A stretch of DNA of 64,000 bases, taken from IMG/VR virus record IMGVR_UViG_3300020183_000053, positions 1-64,000 of that record. The stretch is one strand, 5' to 3'. The notes beneath the pieces were generated by a model, which saw nothing but the letters and a program-made list of their open reading frames with translations, was not told where the DNA came from and did not search any database. Positions 1 to 64,000 of the stretch are shown here, one piece after another. The translations under genes and the position numbers were made by a program. Source of the stretch: a virus. Each line of letters opens with the position of its first letter. Within the stretch, counting starts at the first letter, position 1.

Positions 1-592
1 CCTGCGGTGGTGCTGTGGCGGCACGGTCCAGGGCTTGGTGCGCCGCTGCGGCGCGGCGGTTTGCGGCGGCCTCGGCCTGCACGGCTGCTGCCAGCTGGGC
101 GCGGGCTGCGGACAGGTCCGCGCGCACGCTGGCCAGCTCTGTGGCCGCACCTGTCAGCTGCACCTGCAGCGTACTGGCTCCCAGCTGCGCCTGGGCAGCC
201 GCAAGCTGGGCAGCGTCGCGCTCGGCCTGTGCCGCCTGCAGGTCGGCCTGCAGCGCGTGCAGGTCAGCCTGCAGCTGCACGGCTGCGGCTGCTGCGGTGT
301 CACGCTCGCGGGTCAGCACGGGTAGCTGGCGCAGGTCGCGGGTGGCTTCGCGCAGCTGGGTGCGCAGCTGCTGCGCATCGGCTGCGGCCTGGGCTTCGGC
401 GTCGGTGGCCTTGCGCAGTGCCCACTGCGCGCTGCGCACGTCGGCCAGCAGCGCGATGAACCTGCGCTCTAAGCTCTGCAGGGCGGCGTGGTCGCTGTCT
501 TGCTCCACCGCAGCCGCCACCGCTTGCGCCACCTGCTGGTCTACCGGGATCGCGGGCTTCTTGCTTCGCTTTTTGGGCTTAGTGTCTGTCAT
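1..592 (-). CDS. Coiled-coil hypothetical protein (truncated by window edge)
   Basis: ATG at 592 (MTDTKPKKRSKKPAIPVDQQ...) with an upstream AGGAGG RBS. The A/Q/L-rich heptad frame stays open to base 1. Absent from the ORF track because its stop is outside the window. Confidence 0.7.
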   Translation of the reverse strand, partial: MTDTKPKKRSKKPAIPVDQQVAQAVAAAVEQDSDHAALQSLERRFIALLADVRSAQWALRKATDAEAQAAADAQQLRTQLREATRDLRQLPVLTRERDTAAAAAVQLQADLHALQADLQAAQAERDAAQLAAAQAQLGASTLQVQLTGAATELASVRADLSAARAQLAAAVQAEAAANRRAAAAHQALDRAATAPPQ

Positions 593-879
593 AGCAGCCT
601 CCTGCCTGGGCAGCCCAGGTCGCTGCCACCGCGCATGATGTGGTTCCCCACTGCGGTGGCCAGTGGGTTCTCGGCGCGCAGCAGTGCCTCGCAGTGCGGG
701 CCTGCAGCCCAGCGGCACGCGCACACTGCCGGGTCACGGGGTGCGCTGGGTGCGCTGGGTGCTGGTGCTGGCGCGGGCTGTGCCTGCTGGCCCACTGTGT
801 CCAGCTGCAGGCGCCGCTGCTGTAGCAGCGCCAGCAGCGGCGGCAGGTCGGCCTGCGCGCCACGCTGGGCGCGGGTCAC
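589..879 (-). CDS. Hypothetical protein
   Basis: GTG start overlaps the upstream stop. VTRAQRGAQADLPPLL...CACRW...; tightly coupled to neighbours. Confidence 0.5.
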   Translation of the reverse strand: MTRAQRGAQADLPPLLALLQQRRLQLDTVGQQAQPAPAPAPSAPSAPRDPAVCACRWAAGPHCEALLRAENPLATAVGNHIMRGGSDLGCPGRRLL

Positions 880-1187
880 GACACACCACCAGGGCGGTGC
901 AGGCGGCGCCCATCGGTGGGGCTGTCGGTGGTGTCCTCGGCGGGCTGCACTGCGGGCACGGCCACGGGTGGGTGGGCGTGCGGGTCCACCAGTGCGGCCC
1001 CCAGCACCAGCGGCAGCTGGTCCTGCGTGGCGTACACGCACAGCACCTGCCCGGCGGTTGACAGCACCCGCCAGCCTGCACCCTGCTGCAGCACCAGCAG
1101 CTGGGCGGCGCCACGCAGCAGCAGCACGTGCTCCACGCCGTGCGTGGCCCACGTGTAGGGTGGCGGTACGGTGCAGGGCGGGGTCAC
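876..1187 (-). CDS. Hypothetical protein
   Basis: GTGA overlap with the XF1762-like gene; VTPPCTVPPPYTWATHGVEHVLLL... Confidence 0.55.
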   Translation of the reverse strand: MTPPCTVPPPYTWATHGVEHVLLLRGAAQLLVLQQGAGWRVLSTAGQVLCVYATQDQLPLVLGAALVDPHAHPPVAVPAVQPAEDTTDSPTDGRRLHRPGGVS

Positions 1188-1942
1188 GGCGTGCCGCCTT
1201 GCGGGTCCGCAGCGGGTGCCGCAGGCGGGTCCGACAGTCCGGTGGCCACCAGCAGCGGCAGGGTGCACGGCCCCACCTCCCCGGCTGCCATCATCGCCGC
1301 CCCCCTACCCGGAGCTGCAGGCGCGGCGGGCACCCACCCGCGAGCGAGCGCGGCGGGCAGCGACGCGGGGCTGACCCACCGCCGCTTCGGGTCTGCGACG
1401 ACACCGAGGCGCAGCGTGCGGGTTCGCGAGGGACTCGACCACTGCCGGGGTCCGCGCCGGTCGTGCCGACTCACCACCTCAACCCACCCAGCTGCGCGCA
1501 GGCTGGTCCCGGGCTCAGTGGCGAGCGTGTACGTCACGAGGGGCTGCCCCAGCTTACGCGCCCAGCGGGCCGCTGCGCCAAGGAGTGCTGAGGCGCAGCC
1601 GGGCGGCGCGCCGTCGGGCACAATGCCGCGACTGTACTCCACCCACCCGCCGACCTGCAGTTCGCGCGCGACAGGGCGGCCAATAAGGCCCCAGGCCACC
1701 GGCCAGCGGGTGTCGCGGCGCACCACCACCAGCCCCACAAGGCCGCCCGCTACGCGCGGCAGGTGGCGGTGGTGCTCGGCGCAGCGACGGATAGCCTCGC
1801 CGACACCGATGGTGTGGACGGCGAGGCGGACGGCGCCGGGCGGCTTGTAGCGGGGGGGCGAGTCCACCACCCCGAGCGTAGCACGCGGGGCGCCGTTCAC
1901 GGTGCCTGCCAGCTTTTCCGTTTCTGACTTGCTCACTTGCAA
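1184..1942 (-). CDS. XF1762-family (Mom-like, GNAT-fold) putative DNA-modifying protein
   Basis: Motifs HHRHLP, IGRPVAR, EYSR, ASALLGAAARWA, LVTYTL.TEPGTSLRAAGW match the XF1762/Mom-like pattern. Confidence 0.75.
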   Translation of the reverse strand: MQVSKSETEKLAGTVNGAPRATLGVVDSPPRYKPPGAVRLAVHTIGVGEAIRRCAEHHRHLPRVAGGLVGLVVVRRDTRWPVAWGLIGRPVARELQVGGWVEYSRGIVPDGAPPGCASALLGAAARWARKLGQPLVTYTLATEPGTSLRAAGWVEVVSRHDRRGPRQWSSPSRTRTLRLGVVADPKRRWVSPASLPAALARGWVPAAPAAPGRGAAMMAAGEVGPCTLPLLVATGLSDPPAAPAADPQGGTP

Positions 1943-1949
1943 CCTCGTG

Positions 1950-2549: not shown

Positions 2550-2551
2550 GG

Positions 2552-2773: not shown

Positions 2774-3327
2774 TGGCCACCGCCTGCGCTGGGCGCGGGC
2801 AGCTGCGCGGCCACCAGCCCCTCGGCGGTGCACACGCACGCACCCAGCGCCAGCACGGTGCTGGCCTGCACGGGCGCGCTGTCCGCCCCATACACGTGCG
2901 CCGGGCGCACCACCACCAGCTGCCCACCACCACCGCCCAGGCTGCCCAGCACCGCGCCCTCACGCAGTGCTGCGTGCACCTGCGCAAGCTCACGCACCGC
3001 TTGCACCTCGTACAGCTGCGGCAGCTGGGTGGCTGGCGCGTCTGCGCCCGCTTGCGGTTGCGTGAGGCGCTGCACGTGCAGCCGGGACAGCGCAGCCTCT
3101 GCCTCTTGCAGCTGGTCGTGGGCACGGTTGATTTCGTCCGTTGCCTCGGCAAGCTCGGCACGCAGCTGGGCGAGCTGTGCCTGCAGCTGCTCGGTGTAGT
3201 GGCGCTCCAGCGCACGGTGCACACTGGTGGCAGACACGCTGAACCGCTGCACACCGGACGCGCACGCTGTCTGCAGCACCCACGGCACGAGATCGGGGTG
3301 CGCACGCTCTACCCTTTGACGGCCCAT
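2770..3327 (-). CDS. Hypothetical protein with coiled coil
   Basis: 185 aa, GGAGG RBS; first gene after the large non-coding region. Confidence 0.65.
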   Translation of the reverse strand: MGRQRVERAHPDLVPWVLQTACASGVQRFSVSATSVHRALERHYTEQLQAQLAQLRAELAEATDEINRAHDQLQEAEAALSRLHVQRLTQPQAGADAPATQLPQLYEVQAVRELAQVHAALREGAVLGSLGGGGGQLVVVRPAHVYGADSAPVQASTVLALGACVCTAEGLVAAQLPAPSAGGGQ

Positions 3328-3371
3328 CGGAACCTCCTGCTGGCGGGCTGCGCCTTGCGCCCTGCATGTGC

Positions 3372-3402
3372 TGTAGTAGGCAGCCGCACACTAACCCGCA
3401 CA
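3372..3402 (-). promoter_or_regulatory. 31-bp repeated upstream element (copy 1; copy 2 at 24720-24750)
   Basis: tgtagtaggcagcc-gca-cactaacccgcaca; 29/31 identical to 24720-24750. Both copies lie just upstream of a minus-strand RBS. Confidence 0.65.
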
Positions 3403-3555
3403 GCGTACCACTACACCACAGGCATCAAGCTGAAAACCCGTGCAGCAGCCGGTGCAGGTGGGCGCAGGTGCGGCTGCATCACTGCGCGGGTGCTGTGGTG
3501 CGGGTAGAAAAAAAACCGCTACGCAGGCTGCGCGGGTGGTGTGGGAAAAATGTGC

Positions 3556-3629
3556 GGGGGGCCATGTGGCCGCCCCCCCTGCCGCCGGGCCTGTTCACGG
3601 GGTACCCCCCCCCTACGGGGTACCCCGTA
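3556..3629. repeat. G/C-run hairpin, direct repeat ACGGGGTACCCC and 16-bp palindrome TACGGGGTACCCCGTA (candidate genome end/packaging site)
   Basis: ACGGGGTACCCC at 3597-3608 and 3615-3626; perfect palindrome at 3614-3629; GGGGGG..CCCCCC hairpin at 3556-3579; all within ~1 kb lacking credible genes. Confidence 0.5.
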
Positions 3630-4340
3630 TGCCGCACCCCGACGCCCAGGATGTCGTGCTGCACGCTATTCCCACGCAGCAGGCAGCGCACGGCGCGCTG
3701 TGCTGGGTGCGGGCTGGGTGCAGCGCGGCCTGCCACCCGTACAGGCGGGCACCCGCCTGCACACCCAGACGCTGCGCGGGTGGGTGCGCCGCAGGGTGCG
3801 CAGCTGCGCGCCACAGGCGGGACCGCTGTGGGGCCGCTGTGGGGCCGCTGGTGCCTCCACAGGCGCGCGCAGCCGTCAGCCGCACCCTGTGCCGCCCACC
3901 TGCCCCGCGCGCGCCTGTGGAGCCTGTAGGCCGACTGTGGGGCAGGCTGCTATGGGCTGCTGGGCAGCCTGCTGCACCCTCGCCCGCCATGCGCTGCACC
4001 CACCCCTCCTCACCACCCCACCACCACCGCAGCACAGCCCCTGCCACGATGCGCCTGCATCCTGCGCTCTGGTGCCCACCAGCACCCCACGCGCTGGGCA
4101 CGCTGCACGTGCTGCGCGGGTGAGCAGCACAGGGTGCGCAGCTGGGCACAGTGGGGCGCAGCTGCAGCGCGGCCCGACCGGCTGGCACCAGCCCGCGAAG
4201 CGGGCTGCAGTGCCCAGCTGTGCGCCGATTGCGGCTCACCCAGGCCCGCGACACTGGGCGCCCGGCTGCGCACCTGCGGCTGGGCCTGCGCGGGTGGTGG
4301 GCCGCACTGTGTGCCAGCTGCGCGGGTGCCGCCGAGATGG

Positions 4341-4371
4341 TAAAGCCCCGCTCGGCTGAACCGGCGGGGCT
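4341..4371 (-). terminator. Putative intrinsic terminator
   Basis: AGCCCCGC/GCGGGGCT stem followed by a short TTTA on the minus strand, just after the stop of 4396..4941. Confidence 0.5.
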
Positions 4372-4395
4372 GTGGGGCTGGTGGCGCTGGATCTG

Positions 4396-10246: not shown

Positions 10247-10265
10247 GCGCCCTCCAGGCTGACGG

Positions 10266-10685
10266 CTACGCCAGCGGGCCGCTGCGTGCCAGCAGCCCCT
10301 GCACCGTGGCCAGGGTGCCGCGCACCGACTTCGGGTTCAGGTCGCGGGTCATCGCGTAGCTGGCCAGCGCCCAGCACAGCTCGTCCACCACCTGGGCAGG
10401 CTTCGCGCCTGCTGCCTCTGCGGCCTCCACCTGCAGCAGCAGCCGGTGGTGCAGCTGGGCGGCCTGCGCGGGCGGTGCGGGTGCTGGTGCAGGTGCGGCT
10501 GCAGCCGCAGGCGGCGCAGCGGCTGCCCGCAGCCCCTCGGCCACCGCGCCCAGGAACACAGCACCCAGCGCCTGGGCCAGCTGCTGGCGTGCTTCGTCAC
10601 TATCTGGGCGGGCGGCTGTGCCTTCCGCCACTGCCCGCAGGTGGTCCAGGGCGCGCTGGTGCTCGGGGCTGAGGCGGCTACGCAT
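10266..10685 (-). CDS. Hypothetical protein
   Basis: MRSRLSPEHQRALDHL..., GGAGG RBS. Confidence 0.55.
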   Translation of the reverse strand: MRSRLSPEHQRALDHLRAVAEGTAARPDSDEARQQLAQALGAVFLGAVAEGLRAAAAPPAAAAAPAPAPAPPAQAAQLHHRLLLQVEAAEAAGAKPAQVVDELCWALASYAMTRDLNPKSVRGTLATVQGLLARSGPLA

Positions 10686-11103
10686 CGGCCACCTCGCGCT
10701 CGGGCGGCAGGCCGCAGTGGTCGCGCAGCATGGCGCGACGTGCTGGGCCAGGGTCCAGCACCACGAACCCGTGGCCAGCCACCTCGGCGACCACCAGCGG
10801 CACACCAGCCAGCACGTGCCAGCGGGTGCGCTGCTCCAGCCACCACGTGGCGGGCTGGTCGGGGTCTGCCAGCGGGTTCGGCGCCAGACCCACCCAGCAG
10901 CTGCGGTCCACGCGCAGCTGGGCGCCGCCCAGCTCTGGCGGCATCTGCAGCCAGTCGGGCGACAGGCTTGGGTCCATCACCACCTCCCCGCCTGCACCCG
11001 TGCTCACCGCCTCGCCCACTCGCCTGCTCGTCCACACTGTGTCCACCGCTGCCTCCAGCGGGCGCTGGGTGCGCCCGTGCGTACTGGTATAGGGTAGCAC
11101 CAC
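10678..11103 (-). CDS. Hypothetical protein
   Basis: 141-aa ORF between dpdA and the downstream gene; start uncertain. Confidence 0.5.
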   Translation of the reverse strand: MVLPYTSTHGRTQRPLEAAVDTVWTSRRVGEAVSTGAGGEVVMDPSLSPDWLQMPPELGGAQLRVDRSCWVGLAPNPLADPDQPATWWLEQRTRWHVLAGVPLVVAEVAGHGFVVLDPGPARRAMLRDHCGLPPEREVADA

Positions 11104-11115
11104 CGTCCGCGCACG

Positions 11116-12057
11116 TTATGGGTGGTGCGTCTGCACAATGCGCTGCAGCACGGTAGGGTCAGCGGCCCACTGCGCCATCATTGGCAGCACGTGGTGCCCC
11201 ATGCCCCAGTCTGAGACATACAGGGTGCGGAGGGTAGGGTTCCATTCGCTTAGAGCGGTAGCCACAGCCATCAGCCCAGCCCGCAGGAGCTGACCCCACT
11301 GCGGGTGACCGTTGCGGCCCACCACGAAGGCGTTCGCCAGCACGCTCACGTCTACGCCCAGGCGCTGCAGGTGCTCGGCCTGCACACCTGTCAGCTCGCT
11401 CAGCGGCACGTTGCGCAGCTTTCCGTCCCTATAGATGGGGAGCGTTCTGAAACGTGTACCTGACGCAAAGCTGGTCGCGTCTACGCTGTCCCACGTGTAG
11501 CCGCGCACCAGCTTTTCGGCGTTGATGCCGAACCCGTGTGTGCGCAGACCCAGGCGGCAGCACGCTGGCATCACCGCAGCCAGCCACCTGTCCGCGTCAG
11601 CGTCGGTGTAGCCGTGCAGCTTGCGCAGCTGTGACGTGATCCCGCCGATGGCGATGCGTTGCGCACCGATGGCTGCGTACCGCTCCACCCAGGCGGGGTC
11701 TGTTCCGAGGTGAATAGTGGGCATGGCGTTCTCTACGCCCGCTTCAACCATGCTGCGATGGTTCGCATAGGTGACTGCGGGGTTTCCCACCACGTCAAGG
11801 CTGGCACACCAGTCGGCGCACCTCCACTTCTCACCTGCGCGCAGGAAAGACGTGTAGGCGAGCAGAGACACGGGCTGACCAGTGGTGGCCACGCTGAAGG
11901 CACCACTGTCAAAAACAAGCGGCACACCGTCCGTCGCCGCTGTGCGCGCCTGGGTCCACAGCTTTGGGTTCTGGCGAATGGCGGCATAGCTCACCAGCCA
12001 CCCTACCCGCAGCGTATGGACGCCTGTGCGGTCGCTTGGAGTGTGAATAGTGATCAC
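11116..12057 (-). CDS. dpdA: DpdA-like 7-deazaguanine DNA transglycosylase (TGT fold)
   Basis: VFDSGAFS, SLDVVG, PTIHLG, IAIGG, THGFG, DSVDATSF motifs; GTGA-coupled to queC. Confidence 0.85.
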   Translation of the reverse strand: MITIHTPSDRTGVHTLRVGWLVSYAAIRQNPKLWTQARTAATDGVPLVFDSGAFSVATTGQPVSLLAYTSFLRAGEKWRCADWCASLDVVGNPAVTYANHRSMVEAGVENAMPTIHLGTDPAWVERYAAIGAQRIAIGGITSQLRKLHGYTDADADRWLAAVMPACCRLGLRTHGFGINAEKLVRGYTWDSVDATSFASGTRFRTLPIYRDGKLRNVPLSELTGVQAEHLQRLGVDVSVLANAFVVGRNGHPQWGQLLRAGLMAVATALSEWNPTLRTLYVSDWGMGHHVLPMMAQWAADPTVLQRIVQTHHP

Positions 12058-12770
12058 GGACACTGCAGCAGTGGGTCGCGCACCCCGGCCTGCGCGAAGC
12101 CACGAGCGCGCAGGAGGCAGGCATGGCACTGACCACAGGGCGGCGTCTGCCCGGCGTAGCACGTGTGAGACACCGCCAGGGCGTCCATACAGCCCTGCAG
12201 CGTTGTCGCCAGCCGCACCGAGGCGGCCTTGTCCAGCCGCATCAGTGGCGTCAGCACAGGCAGCCAGTGGTCCCGGCCGACCACCGCCTGGGCGATGGCT
12301 TCTTCTGCCGCATCCACGAATGTCCGCCTGCAATCGAAGTATCCCCCGAAGTCTTCCTCGCACACGCCAGTCACCAGCGCGTCCGCCTTCACCGCCGCTG
12401 CCCGATTGGCAGCCAGTGTCAGGAATAGCAGGTTCCGTCCCGGTACGAACGTCGGCTCTACACCACCGGGCAGGTCGTCAGCATTCGCGTACAGACCCAG
12501 CGGCGCGTCACTCACCAGCGGGCTGGTGCCGACCAGCACGCGGCCCATCTGCACCTCCTCGTGCCGCAGCACCACGCGAGGATAGTGCGCCTGCGCCACC
12601 TGCAGCACCGCCCTGGCAGCACGCAGCTCCGCGTCATGGCGCTGGCCGTACCACACCGACAGTGCGTGCACCTCACTGGCGCCAGCGTCCAGCGCCCAGA
12701 ACAGGCACGTGGTGCTATCCTGGCCACCCGACAGCAGCAGCACCACCCGTTTCCCAGTTAGGTCCATCAT
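12054..12770 (-). CDS. queC: 7-cyano-7-deazaguanine synthase
   Basis: LLSGGQDSTT, YGQRH..EL, TFVPGRN, DCR..F, TCY...CGQCHAC.LR. Confidence 0.95.
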   Translation of the reverse strand: MMDLTGKRVVLLLSGGQDSTTCLFWALDAGASEVHALSVWYGQRHDAELRAARAVLQVAQAHYPRVVLRHEEVQMGRVLVGTSPLVSDAPLGLYANADDLPGGVEPTFVPGRNLLFLTLAANRAAAVKADALVTGVCEEDFGGYFDCRRTFVDAAEEAIAQAVVGRDHWLPVLTPLMRLDKAASVRLATTLQGCMDALAVSHTCYAGQTPPCGQCHACLLRARGFAQAGVRDPLLQCP

Positions 12771-13201
12771 TATTCCCCCTTACGCCAGTCTGCCCAGCAG
12801 TTCGGCGTTTCATAGACCCGCACGTGTGTCACCGCGATGCCGTACCCGTGCAGCAGCTGCCCAGCTGTGTGTCCGACCAGCCGGGCTATATTCTCGGCGG
12901 TGGGTTCGCCGTATTCGCGCGGCATCGCATAGGTTTTCTGGCCACGTTCCACCAGAAAGGCCCCCACAGGGTCATCGGGGTGGTGGGCATACCCGTGGTC
13001 CAGCGCCTCGTCCAGCCACGTGCCGACCACCTGCTTCACCACCGAAAAGTCAACCACGCGGCCCACCGCGTCCAGCGCAGGTGCTGCGCACGTGACCTCG
13101 ATACCGTAGCGGTGCCCGTGCACGTGTGCGCACTTGCTTTCATGGCGCATCACACGGTGGCCCACGTCAATCCCGAAAATGCGGGTGCAGGTCGTACCCA
13201 T
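12770..13201 (-). CDS. queD: 6-carboxy-5,6,7,8-tetrahydropterin synthase
   Basis: GHR...HESKC.HVHGHRY, VVDF, LDH, PTAENIA, VYETP. Confidence 0.95.
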   Translation of the reverse strand: MGTTCTRIFGIDVGHRVMRHESKCAHVHGHRYGIEVTCAAPALDAVGRVVDFSVVKQVVGTWLDEALDHGYAHHPDDPVGAFLVERGQKTYAMPREYGEPTAENIARLVGHTAGQLLHGYGIAVTHVRVYETPNCWADWRKGE

Positions 13202-13797
13202 CACGCCCCCCTGGGCAGCGGTTCACACAGGTGCCAGAACTCGGCGCGCACCTCGTGCTGCCGGAAGGCGCCCAGCAGCACCTCGGTGGTCATGGTGCCA
13301 GTCTTGCGCACACCACGGCAGGCCATGCAGTGGTGCACGGCGCGCACACGCACACCCACCCCACGCGCGTGCAGGTGCGCAGCCAGCGCGTCGGCCACCT
13401 GCTGCGTCAGCCGTTCCTGCACCTGCAGGCGCCGTGCATACAGGTCCACCAGTCGGGCCAGCTTGGAAACACCCACCACCAGACCAGTGGTCCCTGGCAG
13501 GTAGCCCACGTCGGCCACACCAGTGAACGGCAGCATATGGTGCTCGCAGACGCTGTGAAACGGAATGTCGGCCAGCACGATCATCTGGTCGTAGCCACCC
13601 ACTTCCGAGAACCCAGCGTCCCCGGTGCTCGTACTGAGCACGTCGCCCGGCTGCAGGTTCATTCCCTCCAGCATCTCGCTCCACGCCTTGGCCACCCGTT
13701 CGGGCGTGCCACGCAGCCCCTCCCGGTGCACGTCCTCACCCACTGCGGTCAGCAGTGCCCGCACCGCGTCGGCGGCAGCTTGTTTGTCACTTGTCAT
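13201..13797 (-). CDS. folE: GTP cyclohydrolase I
   Basis: REGLRGTPERVA, SVCEHHMLPF, GVSKLAR, RRLQVQERLT, HHCMACRGV. Confidence 0.95.
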   Translation of the reverse strand: MTSDKQAAADAVRALLTAVGEDVHREGLRGTPERVAKAWSEMLEGMNLQPGDVLSTSTGDAGFSEVGGYDQMIVLADIPFHSVCEHHMLPFTGVADVGYLPGTTGLVVGVSKLARLVDLYARRLQVQERLTQQVADALAAHLHARGVGVRVRAVHHCMACRGVRKTGTMTTEVLLGAFRQHEVRAEFWHLCEPLPRGA

Positions 13798-14456
13798 GAT
13801 AGCTCCAGCAGCTTGTGAACCTGCGCCGAAACACGCCAGCCCAGGCGTGCAGCCAGCGCCAGCGCGGGCTGCACCGCGCCGGGTCCGGTCCCGATGTCAA
13901 GGGGCTGGACGAAGCGGTGCACGAACGACCACTCACCCATGCGGCGCAGCTCGTCCTCGGACCACTGCGGGTCCACCACCTTCAGGTCAGTGCCTTGCCT
14001 GACCACCACGTGCTGCAGCGTATCAGCGCCGGGCTGGCGCAGTGCTTTCGGGGATACCGTTACGTGCTGAACAGCCTGCAGGGCATCAGCACGCACGGTC
14101 CCGTTCGTTTCCACAGCCACCCACACGCGCGCAGCACGCAGGCCCTCAATCAGTGCTTCGCCCGCCAGCGTGCGCAGCTGCAGGCACGGCTCGCCGCCGG
14201 ATACCACCACGAACGGGCGGCGCCACCCGTCGCACAGGCGCAGCACAGTGTCCACCACCTCCTGCGGCTCGTAGCGCGTGCCACGGGCGAAGTCGGTGTC
14301 ACACCACGCGGCGCACGCACCAGCACCTGCATCCCGAAGGTGCGGCAGCCCGCTCCACAGGTTGCAGCCAGCGAGGCGCACGAACACTGCAGGAACTCCT
14401 GCCATGCTGCCCTCACCCTGCATCGTGGCGAACACCTCCCGAACGTACACAGTCAT
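13794..14456 (-). CDS. queE: 7-carboxy-7-deazaguanine synthase (radical SAM)
   Basis: EVFATMQGEG, FVRLAGCNLW-x-CAAWCDTDF (CX14CX2C-like variant), SGGEP, ETNGT, VSPK, QVHK. Confidence 0.95.
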   Translation of the reverse strand: MTVYVREVFATMQGEGSMAGVPAVFVRLAGCNLWSGLPHLRDAGAGACAAWCDTDFARGTRYEPQEVVDTVLRLCDGWRRPFVVVSGGEPCLQLRTLAGEALIEGLRAARVWVAVETNGTVRADALQAVQHVTVSPKALRQPGADTLQHVVVRQGTDLKVVDPQWSEDELRRMGEWSFVHRFVQPLDIGTGPGAVQPALALAARLGWRVSAQVHKLLELS

Positions 14457-15175
14457 GCGCCCGCCTGTGCGAGCACCGCCCGCTGCACCGTGTCGGTGAT
14501 ATTGTCGGTGCCGTACTGGTCAGCCAGCTTGCGCACGGCCATCTGGAACGGTTCCATCGTCTCGTCGTTGAGGAACAGCTGCACCACGCGCACCGCGCTG
14601 GTGGGCATCGGTGCCGGCGCCGCGCCGGGCGGCAGCACGCTCCCAGCAGCGGCGCCTGCGCCAGTGGGTGCGGCAGCAGGCACAGCTCCACCGGACGGAG
14701 CCAGCGCCGCAGCCTGCGGGTCAGCGACGGGTGCCTCGGCAACGTATGCCGCCACCAGCGCGTCCAGCTCTGCGGTAGAGAACCCGAGGTCGTCCACGTT
14801 GAAGGACGTGTCCAGTGCCGACAGGTCCGCAAGGTGCCGCGCCAGCACAGCCTCGTCCCAGCCCGCCAGCTCCCCGGTGCGGTTCAGCGCGATGGATAGC
14901 TTGCGGGCCTCTGTGTCGCTCACGTCCAGCAGCGCCACGCGGGCAGCCGTCCAGCCCAGGCTGCGCATGGCCTCGGCGCGCCCGTTCCCACCGATCACCA
15001 TCATCGTGGCCTTCTGCACCAGCAGCGGCTCCACCTGCCCGTGGTCGCGCAGGCTGGCGGCGATGGCCGCGAGGTTCCGCTTGTCATGTGTGCGCGGATT
15101 GGCAGGGTCAGGCCGCAGTTCTGCCAGCGGCACGGTGGTCAGGTTCAGCTCGGCGGTGGGCATCGGTTGCTCCAT
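14453..15175 (-). CDS. ParB/Srx N-terminal domain protein
   Basis: L.PDPANPRTH, IAASLRDHGQVEPLLV, IGGNGR..A, ALNRTGELAGWD; directly upstream of queE. Confidence 0.8.
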   Translation of the reverse strand: MEQPMPTAELNLTTVPLAELRPDPANPRTHDKRNLAAIAASLRDHGQVEPLLVQKATMMVIGGNGRAEAMRSLGWTAARVALLDVSDTEARKLSIALNRTGELAGWDEAVLARHLADLSALDTSFNVDDLGFSTAELDALVAAYVAEAPVADPQAAALAPSGGAVPAAAPTGAGAAAGSVLPPGAAPAPMPTSAVRVVQLFLNDETMEPFQMAVRKLADQYGTDNITDTVQRAVLAQAGA

Positions 15176-17320: not shown

Positions 17321-18049
17321 CTATGCCGCCCGCGCAGCCGCCACCCGTGCAGCCAGCACCACCCGCACGCTGCTGGCGTGCCACGTGCCGCCGCTGCGAG
17401 GCGGGTGCCCAGCCTCGGCCAGCAGCGCGCCCACACGGCGCAGGCTGTGGCCCTCGCCGTGCAGCTGCTGCGCCAGCACGATGGCAGCCTGCTCGGCGGG
17501 CACCGGGTGCAGCTGGCCCTCGGCGTCGGCCTGCCACCCATAGGGTGCGCGCCCGCCAGTGTAGGCGCCCTCGGCCTTCATGTGCGCCATCGCGGCGCTG
17601 GTGCGCTCGCCGATAGTCTCGCGCTCCCACTGCGCCACCGACATCAGCACGTTCAGCACCAGCCGCCCGCCTGCGGTGCGGGTGTCCACCTGCTCCTGCA
17701 CGCTCAGCAGCGCCGGGCCGTCCTTGCGCCCGAACCAGCCGTCCAGCAGCTCGCCCAGGTCGCGCACGCTGCGGGTGAGGCGGTCCAGCTTCGCCACCAG
17801 CAGGGCGTCGGCGGCGCCGCTGTCAAGCATGGCCAGCGCCGCCTGCAGCCCGTCCCGCTGCAGCGTCTTGGCGCTGGCGCCCGCGTCTACCACCACCTCC
17901 ACCAGCTCCACGTCGTACAGCTCGGCGTAGAGCTGCACCTTGGCGCGCTGGGCCTCCAGGCTCACGCCGTGGTCGGCTTGCTTATCGGTGCTCACGCGCA
18001 GGTACGCGACAGCGCGGGTGCGGGTGGTGGTGCTGGTGCTGCGGGCCAT
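17321..18049 (-). CDS. Serine recombinase (resolvase catalytic domain plus short recombinase domain)
   Basis: AVAYLRVSTDKQ, SLEAQ, DAGASAK, R.GL, VAKLDRLTRS, AQWERETIGERT, PYGW; AGGAGG RBS. Confidence 0.9.
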   Translation of the reverse strand: MARSTSTTTRTRAVAYLRVSTDKQADHGVSLEAQRAKVQLYAELYDVELVEVVVDAGASAKTLQRDGLQAALAMLDSGAADALLVAKLDRLTRSVRDLGELLDGWFGRKDGPALLSVQEQVDTRTAGGRLVLNVLMSVAQWERETIGERTSAAMAHMKAEGAYTGGRAPYGWQADAEGQLHPVPAEQAAIVLAQQLHGEGHSLRRVGALLAEAGHPPRSGGTWHASSVRVVLAARVAAARAA

Positions 18050-32338: not shown

Positions 32339-33475
32339 TTAGGCGCCCAGCCCGCTGCCCAGCCCGCTGGCGGTCATGAAGCGCCGGGCCAGCCCCTTTC
32401 GCAGCTCAGCCACCTGCGCGTGGCAGGCGGCCACGTCCACGTCGGCCAGCCCCAGCTGCACCAGCTCGGCCTCCACCGCCTTGATCCGCTGCAGGGCGCG
32501 TGCACCGTCCGCAGCCACGTCTCGCACGGCGTCGTACACCTCGCGGGCGCTGTCGGCCAGCTTGGTCGCGGCGGCCAGCTGCGGAGCGGCCACCGCCAGC
32601 ACCGTGGCCAGCACAGCGGGGCGCTGCTCGTGGCGGTGCCACACGCTGTCGGCCAGCACCAGCAGGTCGCGGGCGGTGGCCACGTCGCGCCCGTCCAGCG
32701 CGGCGCTGGCCTGCAGCAGCCGCACCATCCCGCGCAGGCGGCGGTCGGACACCGTGATGCCGTTGTCGCGCGCCAGCGCGTCGGCCACGTCGCACAGCAG
32801 CTCCAGCACCTGCTGCGGCACCACCACGTCGCGCACCGCCTGCTGCAGCAGCTGCACGCTGTCGGTGGGCAGCTTGGCGGTCACCACCTGCGCCGGGTCA
32901 GCAGCGGTCAGCAGCGCCAGCCGCCCCGCACGGGTGGGCACGTACTGCGTCCAGTAACGCAAGGTGAAGCGGTCGTAGAGCGCCTCCAGGCTGGCGTCCT
33001 CGGGGTATTCGTTGCTCGCCCCCACGCACAGCTCCAGCGGCAGCTGCAGGCGGGCGGTGCCGTTGTCGAACTGGCGCTCGTTCAGCACGGTCAGCAGGCT
33101 GTTCAGGATGGCGCTGTTCGCCTTGAACACTTCGTCGCAGAACGCCACCGTGGCGGTGGGCAGGTAGCCCTGCACGGCGCGCTCGTAGCGGCCCGCGTCC
33201 AGGGCGCCCAGGTCATAGGGTCCGAACAGCTCCTCGGGCGCGGTGAACGCGGTCAGCAGGCGCTGGAAGTATTCGCCGCCCAGGGCGCTGGCGAACACCT
33301 GGGTCACCAGCGACTTGGCGGTGCCAGGAGGCCCCAGCAGCAGCACGTGCGTGCGGGCCAGCAGGGCGAGCAGCAGCCCGTCAATCTCGGCGTCGCGGGC
33401 AACGAACGCGCCCTTCATCTGCGTGCGGAGGGTGGACAGCTGGGTGCGGGCGGTGGCGAGGGTGGTGGTGGTCAC
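32339..33475 (-). CDS. MoxR-family AAA+ ATPase (RavA-like)
   Basis: LLGPPGTAKS, F..LLT.FT.PEELFGP, FCDEVFKANSAILNSLL, GASNE, ALYDRF, SDRR. Confidence 0.9.
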   Translation of the reverse strand: MTTTTLATARTQLSTLRTQMKGAFVARDAEIDGLLLALLARTHVLLLGPPGTAKSLVTQVFASALGGEYFQRLLTAFTAPEELFGPYDLGALDAGRYERAVQGYLPTATVAFCDEVFKANSAILNSLLTVLNERQFDNGTARLQLPLELCVGASNEYPEDASLEALYDRFTLRYWTQYVPTRAGRLALLTAADPAQVVTAKLPTDSVQLLQQAVRDVVVPQQVLELLCDVADALARDNGITVSDRRLRGMVRLLQASAALDGRDVATARDLLVLADSVWHRHEQRPAVLATVLAVAAPQLAAATKLADSAREVYDAVRDVAADGARALQRIKAVEAELVQLGLADVDVAACHAQVAELRKGLARRFMTASGLGSGLGA

Positions 33476-38083: not shown

Positions 38084-39406
38084 TCAGCCCAGATAGTTAG
38101 CGAGAATGGTGTCCGTTACGCTGGGCGCGGTGCCACCCAGCGTGATGCGGGTTTTGCTCGTGCCGCTGTTCCGGTCGACCACGAACTGGCCATCGGTGGG
38201 GTTCGACGCCACCTTGACCAGCATCTGGCCGTTCAGCGCCACGAGCACGCCAGGGAAGAACTCTGTGCGAATGTCCTGCCCCAGATCGTAGGCGAGCGCC
38301 GTGCCGCCAGAGAAGCTCTCGGCGAAGGGCCGGAAGCCAGCCTTCAGCAGCGTGACGGCGTTGTCAGCCAGCTTGGTCGTGGTCACAGCGGTGCCAGCGA
38401 TCTGCGTGGTGCCGACACCGCCATCAGCGATCTTCACGCCGCTGGCGTCCTGCGAGAGCGTAACGCCGTTGAGCCGCAGCGTGACGAACCCGCTGCCGTC
38501 CACCTGCACGCCGTTCGTTGCCTTGACCGCAAGGCCACCACCAGCCCCGAACTCCAGCCCCTTGTTCGCTTCCAGGCTGACGAACAGCCCGTTCACGTCG
38601 CGGGTGAGGCCGCTGTTCGACTTCGTGAGCACCTGCAAGCCGCCGCCGCCATCGACGCCGAGCGCGGGGTTCGAACCAGCGAACTTGACGGCGACCGCGT
38701 CCGACGAGATCTGGATGCCGCTGCCCACGTTCACGTTCAGCGTGTTTCCGGACTTGCTCAGACCGTCGCCCGCGACAATCGTCCCCAGCCCCGTGAACTG
38801 CACGAAGGTGATCGCGGTCGTGCCGAGGGTCACGCTGTCGTTCGTACAGACGAAGCCAGTATCGGCGTTGGAACCCTCCGACACGAAAATGGCGGCGCTG
38901 GGGAACTCGCTGCCAGCGTCCAGGTCGGGCGAGCGGGACGCTGCACCAGACGACGGCGCGACATACACGCCGTTTTGACTGCCGGTGGACTGGTTGACCA
39001 GCAGGATGCGGTCGCCCGCAGCCAGGGTCACGCCGTCCACCGTCTGGCCAGCGGCGAGGCCGGTGCTGATGTCCACGTTGACGGTGGACAGCACGCGGGC
39101 GGGCTGCTTCCACTTGATGCCCTGCGCCACGCCATCGACGTATGCCTTGGTCGCCACGTCGCTGTCGGCGCTGGGTGCAGCCGCCCGCAGCACGGCGCCG
39201 GTGAACGCCCAGGTGCCAGTCAGGTCGGCCTTCGCGGCGGTGACCGCGTTGGCCGCCAGCTTCCCGGTGGTGACGTTGCCATCGGCAATCGCGGCAGTAT
39301 CCACCGCGTTGTTCGCCAGCTTGTCGGCGGTGACGGCGTCGTTCGCCAGCTTGGCGGTGGTGATGATGCTATCGACGAGCTGCCGGGTAACGAACTGCAG
39401 GGCCAT
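38084..39406 (-). CDS. Virion fibre/decoration protein
   Basis: AVT..KLA repeats, DVATKAYVD, DGVTL..GDRILL.NQ...QNGVY and Gly-rich beta repeats. Confidence 0.75.
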   Translation of the reverse strand: MALQFVTRQLVDSIITTAKLANDAVTADKLANNAVDTAAIADGNVTTGKLAANAVTAAKADLTGTWAFTGAVLRAAAPSADSDVATKAYVDGVAQGIKWKQPARVLSTVNVDISTGLAAGQTVDGVTLAAGDRILLVNQSTGSQNGVYVAPSSGAASRSPDLDAGSEFPSAAIFVSEGSNADTGFVCTNDSVTLGTTAITFVQFTGLGTIVAGDGLSKSGNTLNVNVGSGIQISSDAVAVKFAGSNPALGVDGGGGLQVLTKSNSGLTRDVNGLFVSLEANKGLEFGAGGGLAVKATNGVQVDGSGFVTLRLNGVTLSQDASGVKIADGGVGTTQIAGTAVTTTKLADNAVTLLKAGFRPFAESFSGGTALAYDLGQDIRTEFFPGVLVALNGQMLVKVASNPTDGQFVVDRNSGTSKTRITLGGTAPSVTDTILANYLG

Positions 39407-52832: not shown

Positions 52833-53384
52833 TCAGAGCTGGCGCTCCAGCTTGATCAGCTGCACGCGGGGCGCCAGGGCGTTGCCGTTCCAGTCGGTCG
52901 CCGAGCGGAGCGCGGTGTAGGAATACTCGAACTGATGCTCGTCCTGGCCCAGCGGCAGGGTGAGGCCCATGTCGCTGGTGGCCTTCCAGACGTACACGTT
53001 CATCGTATTGCCCGTGACCGCCATGTGGTGCTGGACCCATAGCGCACACTGTGTCACGATGGGGTCGCCGCCGAAGCTGAACGTCTCGGCGCTGCCCGAC
53101 ACGGTGGTGGTGCCAGCACCCATCGCCCGCGCGAAGTTATCGAAGTTCCACTCGATGCCGCTCACGGTCACCTTCGCGCCCTGGGTCTGCGCGAAGTTAT
53201 AGACAGGGATCTTGGGGTTTCCCTGGCTGATGTACCGCTTTTCGCTGGTGATCTCGATGCTGACACCATCCTCGGTGATGCTGCCCACGTCCACGGTGGG
53301 CGTGGCGCCAGCCACTCCCAGGTAGAGCACGGCGGGGCCGAAGCTGATGTCGTTGGTGGTTACGGTGGGGACGTTGAACGGCAC
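52833..53384 (-). CDS. Major tail tube protein
   Basis: ISFGPA.LY, G..T.DGV.I; siphovirus tube size and position. Confidence 0.85.
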   Translation of the reverse strand: MPFNVPTVTTNDISFGPAVLYLGVAGATPTVDVGSITEDGVSIEITSEKRYISQGNPKIPVYNFAQTQGAKVTVSGIEWNFDNFARAMGAGTTTVSGSAETFSFGGDPIVTQCALWVQHHMAVTGNTMNVYVWKATSDMGLTLPLGQDEHQFEYSYTALRSATDWNGNALAPRVQLIKLERQL

Positions 53385-59032: not shown

Positions 59033-59652
59033 CAGCTCTCCAGGCTGGGCGGCGCCAGCGTTTCCGTGGTGGGGTCTGCCGCTGGCGCGTCGGCCTGCGC
59101 CTGCGTGTCGTGCGCTGTGGGCGCCTGTGCGGCCTGTGGGGGCGCCTCGGGCTGCGGGGCGGCGTCGGTGCGGACGGTGCGCTTGCGGGCCGCCTGCGGG
59201 GCGCTGGCGGGCGCCTGCAGCGTGTGCTGCGGCTCCCACGCACCGGCTGCCAGTGCCTGCACCTGCACCTGCGCTGCATCAGTCACCACCACCCGCAGCG
59301 CCGCATCGGCCACTGTCAGCGCGTGCACCTCGTGGTGCGTGGCCAGTACCTGCAGGGTGGCGGCCAGCTCGTCCACGGGGCCAGCCACCAGCACCACCAC
59401 GGCAGCGCGCAGGTCCGCGCTGCCCAGCTGCGCGCCCAGGTAGGCAGGGTCACCCGCCAGCAGGGTGGCACGCCCCACGTGCGCGCGCCAGCCGCCCGCT
59501 GCAGCCACCGCACGGCCACGCCCCACAGGCGGCAGGGTTGCGCCCGGTGGCTGGTCCAGCAGCAGCACGTGGCGCGCATAGTGCAGCCCAGGCTGGGCGC
59601 TGGGCAGCAGGTCCATCGTCGGCAGCACGCCCACCACGTCGTTCTGGCTCAC
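59032..59652 (-). CDS. Hypothetical protein
   Basis: Coupled between the dehydratase and the methyltransferase; low-complexity tail. Confidence 0.6.
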   Translation of the reverse strand: MSQNDVVGVLPTMDLLPSAQPGLHYARHVLLLDQPPGATLPPVGRGRAVAAAGGWRAHVGRATLLAGDPAYLGAQLGSADLRAAVVVLVAGPVDELAATLQVLATHHEVHALTVADAALRVVVTDAAQVQVQALAAGAWEPQHTLQAPASAPQAARKRTVRTDAAPQPEAPPQAAQAPTAHDTQAQADAPAADPTTETLAPPSLES

Positions 59653-60638
59653 GATGCCTCCATTTCAGTGAACGGCGCCAGCTCAACGCTGGAGCCATGG
59701 TATTCGCTCAGCAGGGCGCGCAGGTTTTCGGGCGCCAGCAGGTCGGCGGTGGCTTCCCAGCCCAGGGCGCGCAGGCGGCTGCCGTCCACGCGGTAGGCTG
59801 CATCCTGCCCAGGCCGGTCAGGGCTGGTGACCACAGCCTCGTCCTCGTGCACGCCCAGCTGGGAGGCCAGCGCCAGCACCACCTCGCGCACGCTTGCCAC
59901 ACGTGGTCCGGCGATATTGAAGGTGGCACCAGTGTTCACCGCGCCCGCAGCCAGCCACGCGGCCACGTTGCACAGCGCGTCCGCGAACTCGTGCACCGCC
60001 ACCCACTGTCGCAGCTGGGTGCCGCCACCGTGCAGTGGCACAGGGCGGCCCGCCTGCAGCAGCGCGCAGGCAATCGGCAGCAGCTTCTCGCCCAGCTGTC
60101 CCGCCCCCCATGCGTTGCACCCGCGCGTGATGGCGTACTGCAGCCCGGCGCTGGTGCCCATCGCGCGCACCGCCAGCTCCCCGGCTGCCTTGCCTGCGCT
60201 GTAGGGGCTGCTCGGGCGCAGCACGCTCCACTCTGGATAGGGGCCACTCAACGCAGGGCCATACACCTCGTCGGTGCTGCAGTAGACCAGCGGCACACCA
60301 GCCGACGCGCACGCAGCGGCCACCACCTGGGTGCCGTAGCCGTTGACCAGCATAGCCTCGCCCGGCTGCTGCAGGCTGCGGTCCACGTGCGACTGCGCCG
60401 CAAGGTGCAGCACTACGTCGGGGCGCGCGCCTGCCAGTGCCACCCGCACGTCGTCGGGCGAGCACACGTCACCCAGCCACAGCTGGTCGCCCAGCGCGCT
60501 CTCCACAGCGCCCCACCCGGTGGCGGCACGGGTGCGCGCGTCCAGCACGGTGACACTGCGCGCGCCGTGCGCCTGCGCCAGCTGGCGCACCACGTGCTGC
60601 CCGATGAACCCTGCACCACCTGTGACCAGCGTGCGCAT
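59649..60638 (-). CDS. rmlB: dTDP-glucose 4,6-dehydratase-like SDR
   Basis: LVTGGAGFIG, HLAAQSHVDRS, STDEVYG, PSSPYSAGKA, EKLLP, DRPGQD..Y. Confidence 0.9.
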   Translation of the reverse strand: MRTLVTGGAGFIGQHVVRQLAQAHGARSVTVLDARTRAATGWGAVESALGDQLWLGDVCSPDDVRVALAGARPDVVLHLAAQSHVDRSLQQPGEAMLVNGYGTQVVAAACASAGVPLVYCSTDEVYGPALSGPYPEWSVLRPSSPYSAGKAAGELAVRAMGTSAGLQYAITRGCNAWGAGQLGEKLLPIACALLQAGRPVPLHGGGTQLRQWVAVHEFADALCNVAAWLAAGAVNTGATFNIAGPRVASVREVVLALASQLGVHEDEAVVTSPDRPGQDAAYRVDGSRLRALGWEATADLLAPENLRALLSEYHGSSVELAPFTEMEAS

Positions 60639-60862
60639 CACCGCCCCCTCGTGCGCCGTGTGCGGCGCGGCTCCGCTGCTGGCAGTTCCACCTGCTGCCA
60701 GCGTTTGCGCTGCAGCACCACCGCAGCCGTGGCGGTGTGTGCCTGGGCCAGCCACCCGCCTGCGGTGCGCTGGCAGGTCACCGCCTCTTCTGGCGTGTGT
60801 ACCACCAGCCCCTCGTCAGGGTCGCCGTCAACGTGTGGGCGTGTCCAGTGCGTGGTGGTCAT
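60638..60862 (-). CDS. Small hypothetical protein
   Basis: Coupled ORF. Confidence 0.5.
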   Translation of the reverse strand: MTTTHWTRPHVDGDPDEGLVVHTPEEAVTCQRTAGGWLAQAHTATAAVVLQRKRWQQVELPAAEPRRTRRTRGR

Positions 60863-61966: not shown

Positions 61967-62111
61967 CGCGCGCAGTGTGGGTGCGCAGCACAGCCCTGCA
62001 GGGTGCGCAGCTGCACCTGCGCTGCGCACCACCCGCGCAGCAGAACGCCCGCCCAGCCGGGCGGCTGGTGCGGGCGCTGTGTGCCGCCGGGTGGCGGCGC
62101 GGTGCCGTCGC

Positions 62112-63119
62112 TTAGGTGGCGGCGATACCGGCCAGCACGCTGGCGCCCTTGGTGTTCGCGAGCACCACAGCGCCGTCCCAGTAGATGTCGAACTGGTCGA
62201 ACTGGCTGTCGGTGGTGGCCAGCGGCATCATGGTCATCGGGGTCAGCTCTTCCAGGTAGGCGAAACGCTTGTTCACCACCACCAGCGCGGTGGTGGGGTT
62301 GGTGGCTTCGCCCGCGAACGCCGTGATGCTGGTGCCGCTCCAGCTCATGGCGTCAGACATGCCGGTGGACACCACCAGGGGGATGCCGTCGTAGGTCCGC
62401 ACGCGGAACCCAGCGGCGATCTCCACCTCATTGATGAACTGCTGCTGCGCCTGCAGGGCGGCGTTCAGCTTGCGGATACCCTTGAACGAACCGTAGATAA
62501 CGAGATCGCTGCGGTTACCGCTGCCGCGCACGCTGTCGATGGTTTCGTCCAGCTTCGCCAGGGTGAGACTGCCGCCTGCGCTGGCGCTGGTCTGCGCCAC
62601 CACCTGCCCGCCGACCGCGTTGATGAGGGTCAGCAGACCGTTCATCATATTCGCGTCGCCGCCCGCGCCGTTGTTCCCGACGAAGATGCACGCCTCCAGC
62701 GCCTCGTTGAAGTCGTCAGCCTTCTGCATCATTTCTTCGGCGAGGATGTCGATGTAGCTGCGGCCACGTGCCCGCATCTTGCGGGTGACGCGCCCACGGG
62801 TGGCGAGCGTGGCGTAGGTGAACGTCGCCTGCGCGTAGCTGCCAGTGCTCTCCACCACGCTGTCGGTGTCAGCCACCCACACGTCGCCCACGCTCATGGA
62901 GCTGGCGGTGCGGCGGTTGATGATGGCTGCCGAACCGCTGCCCGGCTTGCGGTCCATCGTCCCCAGGGCGCCGAACTCGCGGATCGACAGCTGCTGGATG
63001 ATGCGGTTGGTGAAGTTCTGGACCAGCGTGCTGCCAGCGCCAGCGACGTTGATGGCGCGGGCGAACGCCTCGCGCTTCGACGGGTCGAGGCCCGCCCACA
63101 CGGTAGGGGTGGTGCTCAT
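62112..63119 (-). CDS. Major capsid protein (HK97 fold)
   Basis: 335 aa downstream of protease/scaffold; F.G.......GL, L..LDE.ID, TYDGIP.V; strong codon bias. Confidence 0.85.
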   Translation of the reverse strand: MSTTPTVWAGLDPSKREAFARAINVAGAGSTLVQNFTNRIIQQLSIREFGALGTMDRKPGSGSAAIINRRTASSMSVGDVWVADTDSVVESTGSYAQATFTYATLATRGRVTRKMRARGRSYIDILAEEMMQKADDFNEALEACIFVGNNGAGGDANMMNGLLTLINAVGGQVVAQTSASAGGSLTLAKLDETIDSVRGSGNRSDLVIYGSFKGIRKLNAALQAQQQFINEVEIAAGFRVRTYDGIPLVVSTGMSDAMSWSGTSITAFAGEATNPTTALVVVNKRFAYLEELTPMTMMPLATTDSQFDQFDIYWDGAVVLANTKGASVLAGIAAT

Positions 63120-63122
63120 GGC

Positions 63123-64000
63123 TCAGGCCTCCATGCTGTCAGTGATGACGCCGTCCGCGAAGGCAGCGGCGAGGATGCTGCGCAGGTCAGCCTCCAGCTG
63201 GGCGCGGGTCTGCACCACGGTGCTGTCCCGCCGGTCAGCCTGCGCGCGCGCCACCTGCACCAGCGCAGAGCCAGCACCCAGGGTGCGCTCCACGGTGCGG
63301 ATCAGCGTGCCGTGGCCACCGACATCGGTGTGGCGGTGCGCGTGCGGGCTGTGGGCCACACCCTGGCGGCTCGCAGCGGCCAGGGCGCGGTTCAGCTGGG
63401 CTTCCTTGGCGTCCAGCTGGGCACGCAGCTGGGCGGCCTCGTCGGCAGCCGGGGCGGTGGTGGTGGTCGGTGCGACGCGCTCCACCAGCTTGGCGAGAAC
63501 ACCGTTCAGCTCGCCGATGGCGCGCTCCAGAGTGTCCAGCCGCTGGGTGTCGGTCGCCGTGCGGTTGTCGGGCATGGCGTTGTCCTCGCTGTGGGTTGAT
63601 TGCAGTGCTGCGCTCTGCACGGCGTCCGACTGGCTGTTCGCAGTAGAACCCTGCGCGCCTGCCGTGTCAATAGCCGTATCACCCGCGCGCAGCTCGGGCG
63701 GTTCCTTGTCGAAGCGCGTGTATAGCGCCACGATGCGCTCGTACACTTCGGGGCGGTCGCTGTCGGGAATGTCCACACCACCGCGCGCGCCGTTCAGTGC
63801 ACCCATAGCTGCGGCCACACCACGGAACACGATGTGCAGCTCGCCATTCACCATCTTGGCGAATGGCAGCTTGTAGCTGGCGCGGCGCTCGGGGTTCGCA
63901 GTGTCCACCCACAGGTGGGCCATCGCGTAGCGTTCCCAGTCGGGCGGGTCGCCCAGCACCTCGTTCGCGGCGTCGGTGTCCCAGCCCCAGGCGGTGTCCT
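63123..64000 (-). CDS. Prohead protease/scaffold C-terminal part (5' end outside window)
   Basis: Frame open past the window end; SYKLPF......L....RGV.AA..AL.GARGGV.IP domain then a coiled-coil scaffold; directly upstream of the capsid gene. Confidence 0.65.
   Translation of the reverse strand, partial: DTAWGWDTDAANEVLGDPPDWERYAMAHLWVDTANPERRASYKLPFAKMVNGELHIVFRGVAAAMGALNGARGGVDIPDSDRPEVYERIVALYTRFDKEPPELRAGDTAIDTAGAQGSTANSQSDAVQSAALQSTHSEDNAMPDNRTATDTQRLDTLERAIGELNGVLAKLVERVAPTTTTAPAADEAAQLRAQLDAKEAQLNRALAAASRQGVAHSPHAHRHTDVGGHGTLIRTVERTLGAGSALVQVARAQADRRDSTVVQTRAQLEADLRSILAAAFADGVITDSMEA

Follow-up and report, generated by a model that had tools for sequence, protein, structure and literature searches.

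The first 64,000 bases of the virus record IMGVR_UViG_3300020183_000053 in IMG/VR (the window; the whole 74,873-bp genome is labelled G000) are depleted in the dinucleotides GA and TC and enriched in CA and TG. We found that this bias is a true genome signature at the level of the DNA, which is strand-symmetric and pervades synonymous sites, codon junctions and non-coding DNA. It is probably (we would put this at roughly 0.6) an exaggerated version of the kind of signature found in freshwater high-GC Burkholderiales, of the family with Hydrogenophaga, Aquincola, Ideonella and Aquabacterium.

G000 is a siphovirus genome with direct terminal repeats and is rated complete. It was near-whole in at least seven lake-water metagenome runs and partial in others, and since it recurs across 10 or more lake metagenomes, it is not an assembly oddity. 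The GC content of the window is 70.4%, and about 91 genes were called, nearly all of them on the minus strand. These include genes for a tape-measure protein, portal, large terminase (TerL), major capsid protein, primase-helicase, SF2 helicase, PD-(D/E)XK nuclease and resolvase; an AAA_24 protein is also encoded by the phage, and no tRNA genes were found in its sequence. A megablast search with 12 kb of G000 against a phage collection returned no match, and tblastn with TerL returned nothing above 31% identity.

A genome-wide dinucleotide signature

Odds ratios are reported as symmetrised ρ* values (Karlin-type dinucleotide relative abundance) and distances between genomes as δ*. The signature and its most depleted non-coding region are located as follows.

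1–64,000, no strand: genome-wide dinucleotide signature seen in the odds ratios, persisting over the rest of the 74,873-bp genome
3253–4395, minus strand: 1.1-kb non-coding region in which no gene was called, with GA/TC 0.39 and CA/TG 1.82

Across the window the odds ratios are 0.70 for GA/TC, 1.63 for CA/TG, 0.67 for AA/TT, 0.53 for TA and 1.29 for GC, while CT/AG, at 1.10, is not depleted. The original prediction had inferred the bias from hand counts in four patches, all of which we reproduced exactly: 3 GA+TC against 16.1 expected at 3661–3840 (76.7% GC), 2 against 16.2 at 27181–27360, 13 against 13.5 at 38101–38220, and 7 against 7.3 at 11701–11760. The GA/TC and CA/TG bias is therefore real.

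Codon-aware shuffling had been named as the refuting test, with an odds ratio near 1 counting against the bias, and the bias survived it. When the protein sequences and the codon counts of each gene were kept, GA/TC was 0.823 in the shuffled genes and 0.716 in the real ones (z = −28), and CA/TG was 1.443 and 1.624, respectively (z = +41). When only the proteins were kept and codons were drawn without regard to context, the expected values were 1.05 for GA/TC and 1.10 for CA/TG. Compared with the observed 0.72 and 1.62, this means that nearly all of the bias is synonymous or lies between codons, and does not stem from amino-acid content. At codon junctions, the observed-to-expected ratios (O/E) relative to position-specific base frequencies were 0.61 for GA, 0.35 for TC, 1.58 for CA and 1.74 for TG. 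The 5.2 kb of non-coding DNA shows a GA/TC of 0.51 and a CA/TG of 1.64, and here the two strands agree closely (GA 0.55 and TC 0.47; CA 1.62 and TG 1.66). The claim that coding and non-coding DNA are both affected is thus borne out by the junctions and the non-coding DNA. The accompanying claim of AA/TT depletion holds for coding DNA only, as the non-coding value is 0.93–0.99 (0.93–1.06 for TT).

Codon usage is correspondingly extreme, with CTG making up 86% of leucine codons, GTG 85% of valine, AGC 65% of serine and CAG 96% of glutamine codons, and GGA only 4% of glycine codons. The context rule can be put simply: the base after a T is G in preference to C, T or A or, equivalently, the base before an A is C. 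The CA/TG excess is the arithmetic complement of T seldom preceding C, T or A.

The region at 3253–4395 is the most depleted patch of the original prediction, and it displays the bias where no protein constraint acts. Separately, this region is rich in repeats, short inverted ones among them. The 11-mer CACCCGCGCAG is present in six identical copies on the minus strand (within 3482–4328), a 12-mer is duplicated around a GGTACC core (3597–3626), and a perfect 16-nt inverted repeat (3855–3870 and 3907–3922) is accompanied by T-runs. The region may serve as an origin or as a hub of regulation.

Relatives share the bias in graded form

The comparison set from IMG/VR comprised 23 relatives. The closest complete relative, G306, is 79 kb long with a GC content of 64%, is rated 100% complete and has a TerL 92% identical to that of G000, with which it is collinear at 72–78% nucleotide identity. 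G306 has a CA/TG of 1.41, a GA/TC of 0.84 and a TT of 0.98, and a further relative, G308 (67% GC), has a CA/TG of 1.52 and a GA/TC of 0.82.

G000 itself carries genes of the DpdA type of DNA modification, in the following positions.

11116–14456, minus strand: dpdA-queC-queD-folE-queE segment (PHROG matches), GC content at third codon positions (GC3) 0.76–0.80 against about 0.85 elsewhere, GA/TC 0.74–0.83
11116–12063, minus strand: first dpdA-like gene, GC3 0.76, among the two lowest in the genome
71308–72120 of the genome (beyond the window), minus strand: second dpdA-like gene, GC3 0.66, no nucleotide match in G306
1184–1936, minus strand: candidate Mom-like DNA modification protein of 250 amino acids (phrog_1384, 1.3e-13), GA/TC 0.84

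Protein and family searches for dpdA and queC, for which G000 served as the positive control, gave no match in G306, and blastn with 10247–14471 found no match there. The bias is therefore common to the relatives in graded form, whether dpdA was found or not. The Mom-like candidate has no Pfam match and no orthologue in G306, and may represent a second DNA-modification system beside DpdA.

The nearest bacterial signatures

In 66 diverse bacterial loci, high-GC genomes had a GA/TC of 1.0–1.46 and a CA/TG of about 1.0, which is the opposite of the phage. Among 40 genomes of the class Gammaproteobacteria, the highest CA/TG (1.37) belonged to Hydrogenophaga, assigned by an exact protein match. Forty further samples of the Hydrogenophaga family gave a CA/TG of 1.02–1.43 and a GA/TC of 0.64–1.23. 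These samples, which include Aquincola, Ideonella/Pseudaquabacterium and Aquabacterium, are the nearest to the phages by δ*, and the best value for each phage falls within the family (0.075 for G306, 0.108 for G308 and 0.161 for G000). Tetranucleotide correlations are likewise highest, on average, with this family.

The resemblance extends to the features that define the bias in the phage. Codon junctions in the Hydrogenophaga family have O/E values of 0.59–0.88 for GA, 0.45–0.98 for TC, 1.19–1.57 for CA and 1.31–1.64 for TG. GTG accounts for 54–81% of valine codons, CTG for 55–81% of leucine codons and GGA for 1–5% of glycine codons, so that the preference for CTG, GTG, AGC and CAG is a habit common to the phage and the family. 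Glutamine makes up 5–7% of residues in the family's proteins and is at least as frequent as glutamate. Most other high-GC taxa have junction GA/TC values of 0.9–1.56 and prefer GTC and CTC; the reversed pattern was seen in Actinomycetota, Alphaproteobacteria, Planctomycetota and most of the sampled Gammaproteobacteria, with a few taxa, such as Stenotrophomonas and a Thermoleophilia metagenome-assembled genome (MAG), lying part-way toward the phage pattern.

That phage signatures track those of their hosts is established (PMC2917420). G000 resembles this Karlin-type convergence in that its bias is pervasive, strand-symmetric, present in coding and non-coding DNA and in relatives, and closest to that of one bacterial family. 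The nature of the bias is thus most likely ordinary, a host-type composition that is exaggerated in a compact, high-GC phage genome.

The search for a family A or B DNA polymerase (PolA, PolB), the only polymerase types searched for, gave no match in the complete genome, although the primase-helicase, SF2 helicase, nuclease, AAA_24 protein and resolvase are all present. Replication by host enzymes is on this account a reasonable inference. Host enzymes would then probably carry out both the copying and the repair of the phage DNA, and its genes would be translated with the tRNAs of the host. A mutation or repair bias that depends on sequence context, along with codon adaptation (NTG, CAG, AGC), may draw the phage to the accent of its host. 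Where a compact genome has a GC3 of 85%, the small number of A and T bases left would fall mostly in CA/TG.

Several points weigh against a host-type origin. Unlike in the usual match between phage and host signatures, G000 (CA/TG 1.63) lies beyond every one of the 146 bacterial samples, none of which exceeds 1.43, and its best δ* of 0.161 is still distant, being large for a phage–host pair. Two further ratios depart from the candidate hosts, namely AT (0.79 against 1.0–1.5) and AC/GT (1.14 against 0.8–1.0). Each bacterial sample was one single 20-kb stretch, and the comparison set was without picocyanobacteria, another high-GC lake group. A prophage relative by TerL was absent from 401 Hydrogenophaga-family genomes (matches at 31% identity or less), and exact patterns found no TerL relative in 185,579 species genomes, so that neither search gave prophage evidence of a host. 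One of the 401 genomes is the unpublished G455; neither it nor the unpublished G044, G146 and G301 underlies any of the conclusions. Lastly, mutation bias and selection are inseparable with the present data.

Two approaches were tried and set aside. S-CBP4, considered as a proxy for picocyanobacterial composition, was rejected as uninformative at 44% GC. Polarising the substitutions at four-fold sites with G308 as the outgroup placed most changes on the G306 branch, and was rejected as uninformative because G000 and G308 share a codon preference, so that convergence and saturation bias the parsimony.

Distribution among genes and proteins

The bias had been described as patchy, and this is the case: GA+TC per kb has a standard deviation of 15.1, where first-order Markov simulations give 7.4 ± 0.7 (z = 11). 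CA/TG is at least 1.19 in every 1-kb window, with GA/TC ranging from 0.31 to 1.11. Between genes, GA/TC varies from 0.32 to 1.06 and mirrors CA/TG (r = −0.91). It is not predicted by GC3 (r = 0.02) and correlates with the value of the G306 orthologue (r = 0.75). The combined share of aspartate, glutamate, isoleucine and phenylalanine (D+E+I+F) explains 53% of the variance between genes, because at high GC3 the codons of these residues must contain GA or TC. A regression on this share, the C-ending share of valine and leucine codons and the junction O/E reaches an R² of 0.95. The genes at the two ends of the range are listed here.

26438–27907, plus strand: most GA/TC-depleted gene, an open reading frame (ORF) of 489 amino acids, GA/TC 0.32 and CA/TG 2.06
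38084–39406, minus strand: decoration/fibre-like virion structural gene (phrog_2647, 5.9e-35), non-depleted, GA/TC 1.06
52833–53384, minus strand: probable major tail protein gene with an Ig-like domain (weak PHROG matches), non-depleted, GA/TC 1.04
62112–63119, minus strand: major capsid protein gene (PHROG search), non-depleted, GA/TC 1.02

The ORF at 26438–27907 lies on the minority strand, holds the depleted patch 27181–27360 and encodes a protein in which D+E+I+F make up just 5% of residues. It is kept in G306 at 75% amino-acid identity; it has no Pfam match, and its PHROG match is borderline, at the limit of E = 0.001. At the other end of the range, GTC and CTC make up 38% of the G/C-ending valine and leucine codons of the decoration/fibre-like gene, and its junction O/E is 0.86. 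The G306 orthologues of the three virion genes have GA/TC values of 1.02 (decoration/fibre-like), 1.12 (probable major tail protein) and 1.17 (major capsid protein, 94% amino-acid identity). Non-depleted genes had been proposed to be either strongly constrained or recent imports. As the orthologues are equally non-depleted, constraint or expression-linked codon choice accounts for these genes and recent import does not. Only the dpdA genes (GC3 0.66–0.80) and the Mom-like gene, which are without counterparts in G306, look like later arrivals. The patchiness as a whole arises from protein constraint through D, E, I and F codons, from the differing codon choice of abundant virion proteins and from a few recently acquired segments.

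The proposed shift of the proteome is partly upheld. Glutamine rises modestly, from 3.5% to 5.6%, when G000 is aligned with its 64% and 46% GC relatives, through replacements of lysine (67 against 8) and glutamate (96 against 34), and glutamate, isoleucine, lysine and phenylalanine fall. The suggested gain of tryptophan and cysteine was not seen, as both are equal in the 46% GC relative. The other replacements mostly follow the usual drift at high GC (isoleucine to valine or leucine, lysine to arginine, serine to alanine, methionine to leucine), and the loss of isoleucine, lysine and phenylalanine is a generic high-GC effect.

Alternative explanations

The signature might instead belong to the phage lineage, whose own replication, recombination, repair or biased gene conversion would enrich T before G regardless of the host, with the likeness to Burkholderiales in part a coincidence. 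CA/TG exceeds 1.1 in all 23 relatives, which span 46–70% GC, and climbs with GC content (1.14, 1.41, 1.52 and 1.63). The position of G000 beyond every bacterial sample and its deviating AT and AC/GT ratios also fit this explanation, as does its own set of primase-helicase, SF2 helicase, PD-(D/E)XK nuclease, AAA_24 protein and resolvase. Against it, GA/TC is uneven over the GC groups (0.69–0.82, then 1.08–1.17, then 0.76–0.94), which fits host-specific signatures, the 46% GC relative is close to low-GC Gammaproteobacteria (δ* 0.054–0.064), and no DNA polymerase was found in the two families searched. We regard a lineage-borne signature as unlikely.

A related proposal retains the host-type baseline and ascribes to selection on the phage DNA only the excess over every sampled bacterium (CA/TG of 1.63 and a dipyrimidine fraction of 0.410). 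Such selection could disfavour dipyrimidines with T in virions exposed to sunlight in lake water, or act against a host enzyme that reads TC or GA. We consider this addition to the host-type signature rather unlikely.

In its stronger form, as the cause of the whole bias, the sunlight explanation holds that ultraviolet (UV) light selects in the virion against TT and TC, the main photoproduct sites, leaving the TG excess as the arithmetic complement. The phage is of lake-water origin and its bias is symmetric across strands. TT and TC together have a 0.104 share of the steps, where the candidate host family has about 0.16, and the total of dipyrimidine steps (0.410) is below that of all 75 high-GC bacterial samples (0.427–0.513). 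The order of depletion, with TT and TC about equal and followed by CC and then CT, resembles that of photoproduct yields. This part of the UV proposal, that dipyrimidine steps are fewer than in host-type DNA, therefore stands. However, CT/AG is enriched (1.10), TT is undepleted both in non-coding DNA (0.93–1.06) and in G306 (0.98), the bacterial family is biased in the same direction, the genes of abundant virion proteins relax the bias, and the selection per site would be tiny. UV selection is accordingly an improbable cause of the bias.

It had also been put forward that the phage evades a host defence directed at TC or GA, for instance restriction, DarT-like ADP-ribosylation or a deaminase. 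Heavy restriction pressure on the phage is evident. Among palindromic 6-mers with an expectation of at least 8, 55% have an O/E below 0.25, compared with 0.4% of non-palindromic hexamers; CCGCGG occurs 0 times against 53 expected, CGGCCG 2 against 53, AGCGCT 1 against 45 and CCCGGG 1 against 38. CTAG occurs once, and AATT and TTAA not at all. CAGCTG, CTGCAG, GCGCGC, GGCGCC, TGCGCA, TGGCCA, CACGTG and GTGCAC are not avoided. GANTC, the site of HinfI and of CcrM-type enzymes, is found 14 times, where the dinucleotide frequencies predict 105 sites and the highest-order Markov model 53. G306 avoids it as well (23 against 187 and 95, respectively); G308 and the 46% GC relative do not. The avoided sets vary among close relatives, in GCCGGC, CGGCCG, GACGTC, CTGCAG and GGCGCC, as the observed and expected counts of two of these words illustrate.

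GCCGGC, observed/expected: G000 2/33, G306 73/93, G308 0/5
CTGCAG, observed/expected: G000 202/211, G306 87/95, G308 1/44

These differences suggest different host restriction repertoires. G000 thus conforms to what is seen in phage restriction-site avoidance, with many 4- to 6-bp palindromes and GANTC nearly absent and with sets that differ between relatives, as would fit differing restriction–modification repertoires of their hosts. This depletion is classical restriction avoidance, distinct from the dinucleotide bias and much too slight to account for it. The missing GANTC sites amount to under 10% of the GA/TC deficit, and GATC and TCGA (O/E 1.2 given the dinucleotide frequencies) and TNTC (1.02) are not avoided. 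Unlike restriction-site avoidance, which concerns specific words, the dinucleotide bias of G000 is symmetric and motif-independent, and persists in non-avoided words and in the bacteria. The bacteria of the presumed host type are biased likewise, which is unexpected for a defence against foreign DNA. The avoidance of CpG in vertebrate RNA viruses is a case of defence-driven dinucleotide suppression and would offer a parallel if TC or GA were recognised by some factor of the host. We know of no such factor, nor of any indication of one for G000, and unlike the CpG case the presumed host-type genomes share the bias. Defence evasion is therefore upheld for palindromes and GANTC, and very unlikely as the cause of the GA/TC loss.

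The remaining proposal, that the bias reflects avoidance of the target of the phage's own DpdA (GA, GGC) or is a by-product of it, finds no support in G306, which still has a CA/TG of 1.41 and a GA/TC of 0.84 with no match to dpdA or queC, or in the dpdA phages Skure (of the CAjan genus), Rosebush and PaMx25, which are not GA-poor (GA/TC 0.87, 1.03 and 1.10, respectively); we consider it highly implausible. G000 does have two dpdA-like genes and the full preQ0 pathway, is the GA-poorest of the family members examined, and in its dpdA-like transglycosylases with folE, queD, queE and queC resembles the systems of iggy and CAjan, in which GA is a proven DpdA motif: 97% of GA sites in iggy bear dPreQ0, which is protective, and the motifs in CAjan are GA and GGC (PMC10484667, PMC7544227). 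Since modified GA sites protect iggy, avoiding them would lower protection, and just 10.5% of the G residues in G000 lie within GA. The dpdA segments, lowest in GC3, are seemingly later arrivals, and no link between dpdA and the bias was found. Because the DpdA of G000 is only 25–30% identical to characterised DpdAs, the GA motif cannot be assigned to it.

Other features of the window

A bpMoxR-type AAA+ ATPase (E = 3.8e-59) adjoins a VWA-domain protein at 30715–33475 on the minus strand. MoxR–VWA pairs are typical of bacterial systems, and this one is phage-borne. At 17321–18049, also on the minus strand, lies a serine recombinase gene (Resolvase N-terminal domain, E = 2.9e-35), which lies in the stretch best conserved with G306 (87% nucleotide and 91% amino-acid identity) in a phage that is apparently lytic.

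The gene at 59649–60641 (minus strand) encodes a phage-type RmlB, homologues of which occur on many metagenome contigs of 65–82 kb, both in lake and in Tara ocean samples. This distribution points to a large uncultured family of 65–82 kb phages in lakes and seas. One of these contigs is filed at NCBI under a ‘Euryarchaeota archaeon’ MAG (MBT61186.1), probably through a binning error. RmlB was tried as a clue to the host and rejected, as its best 120 matches were mostly phage-sized metagenome contigs and bacterial RmlBs were 31–40% identical.

Implications

A striking bias beside a DNA-modification cluster tempts one to a story of defence, and G000 advises caution, as here the bias is also present where dpdA was not found and matches the usual composition of one bacterial family. 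The host-type signature provides a lead to the host, with freshwater high-GC Burkholderiales as candidates. The residual excess over the bacterial signatures, together with the very strong, lineage-specific avoidance of palindromes, makes this phage family a useful case in which restriction pressure and compositional drift can be followed in one genome.

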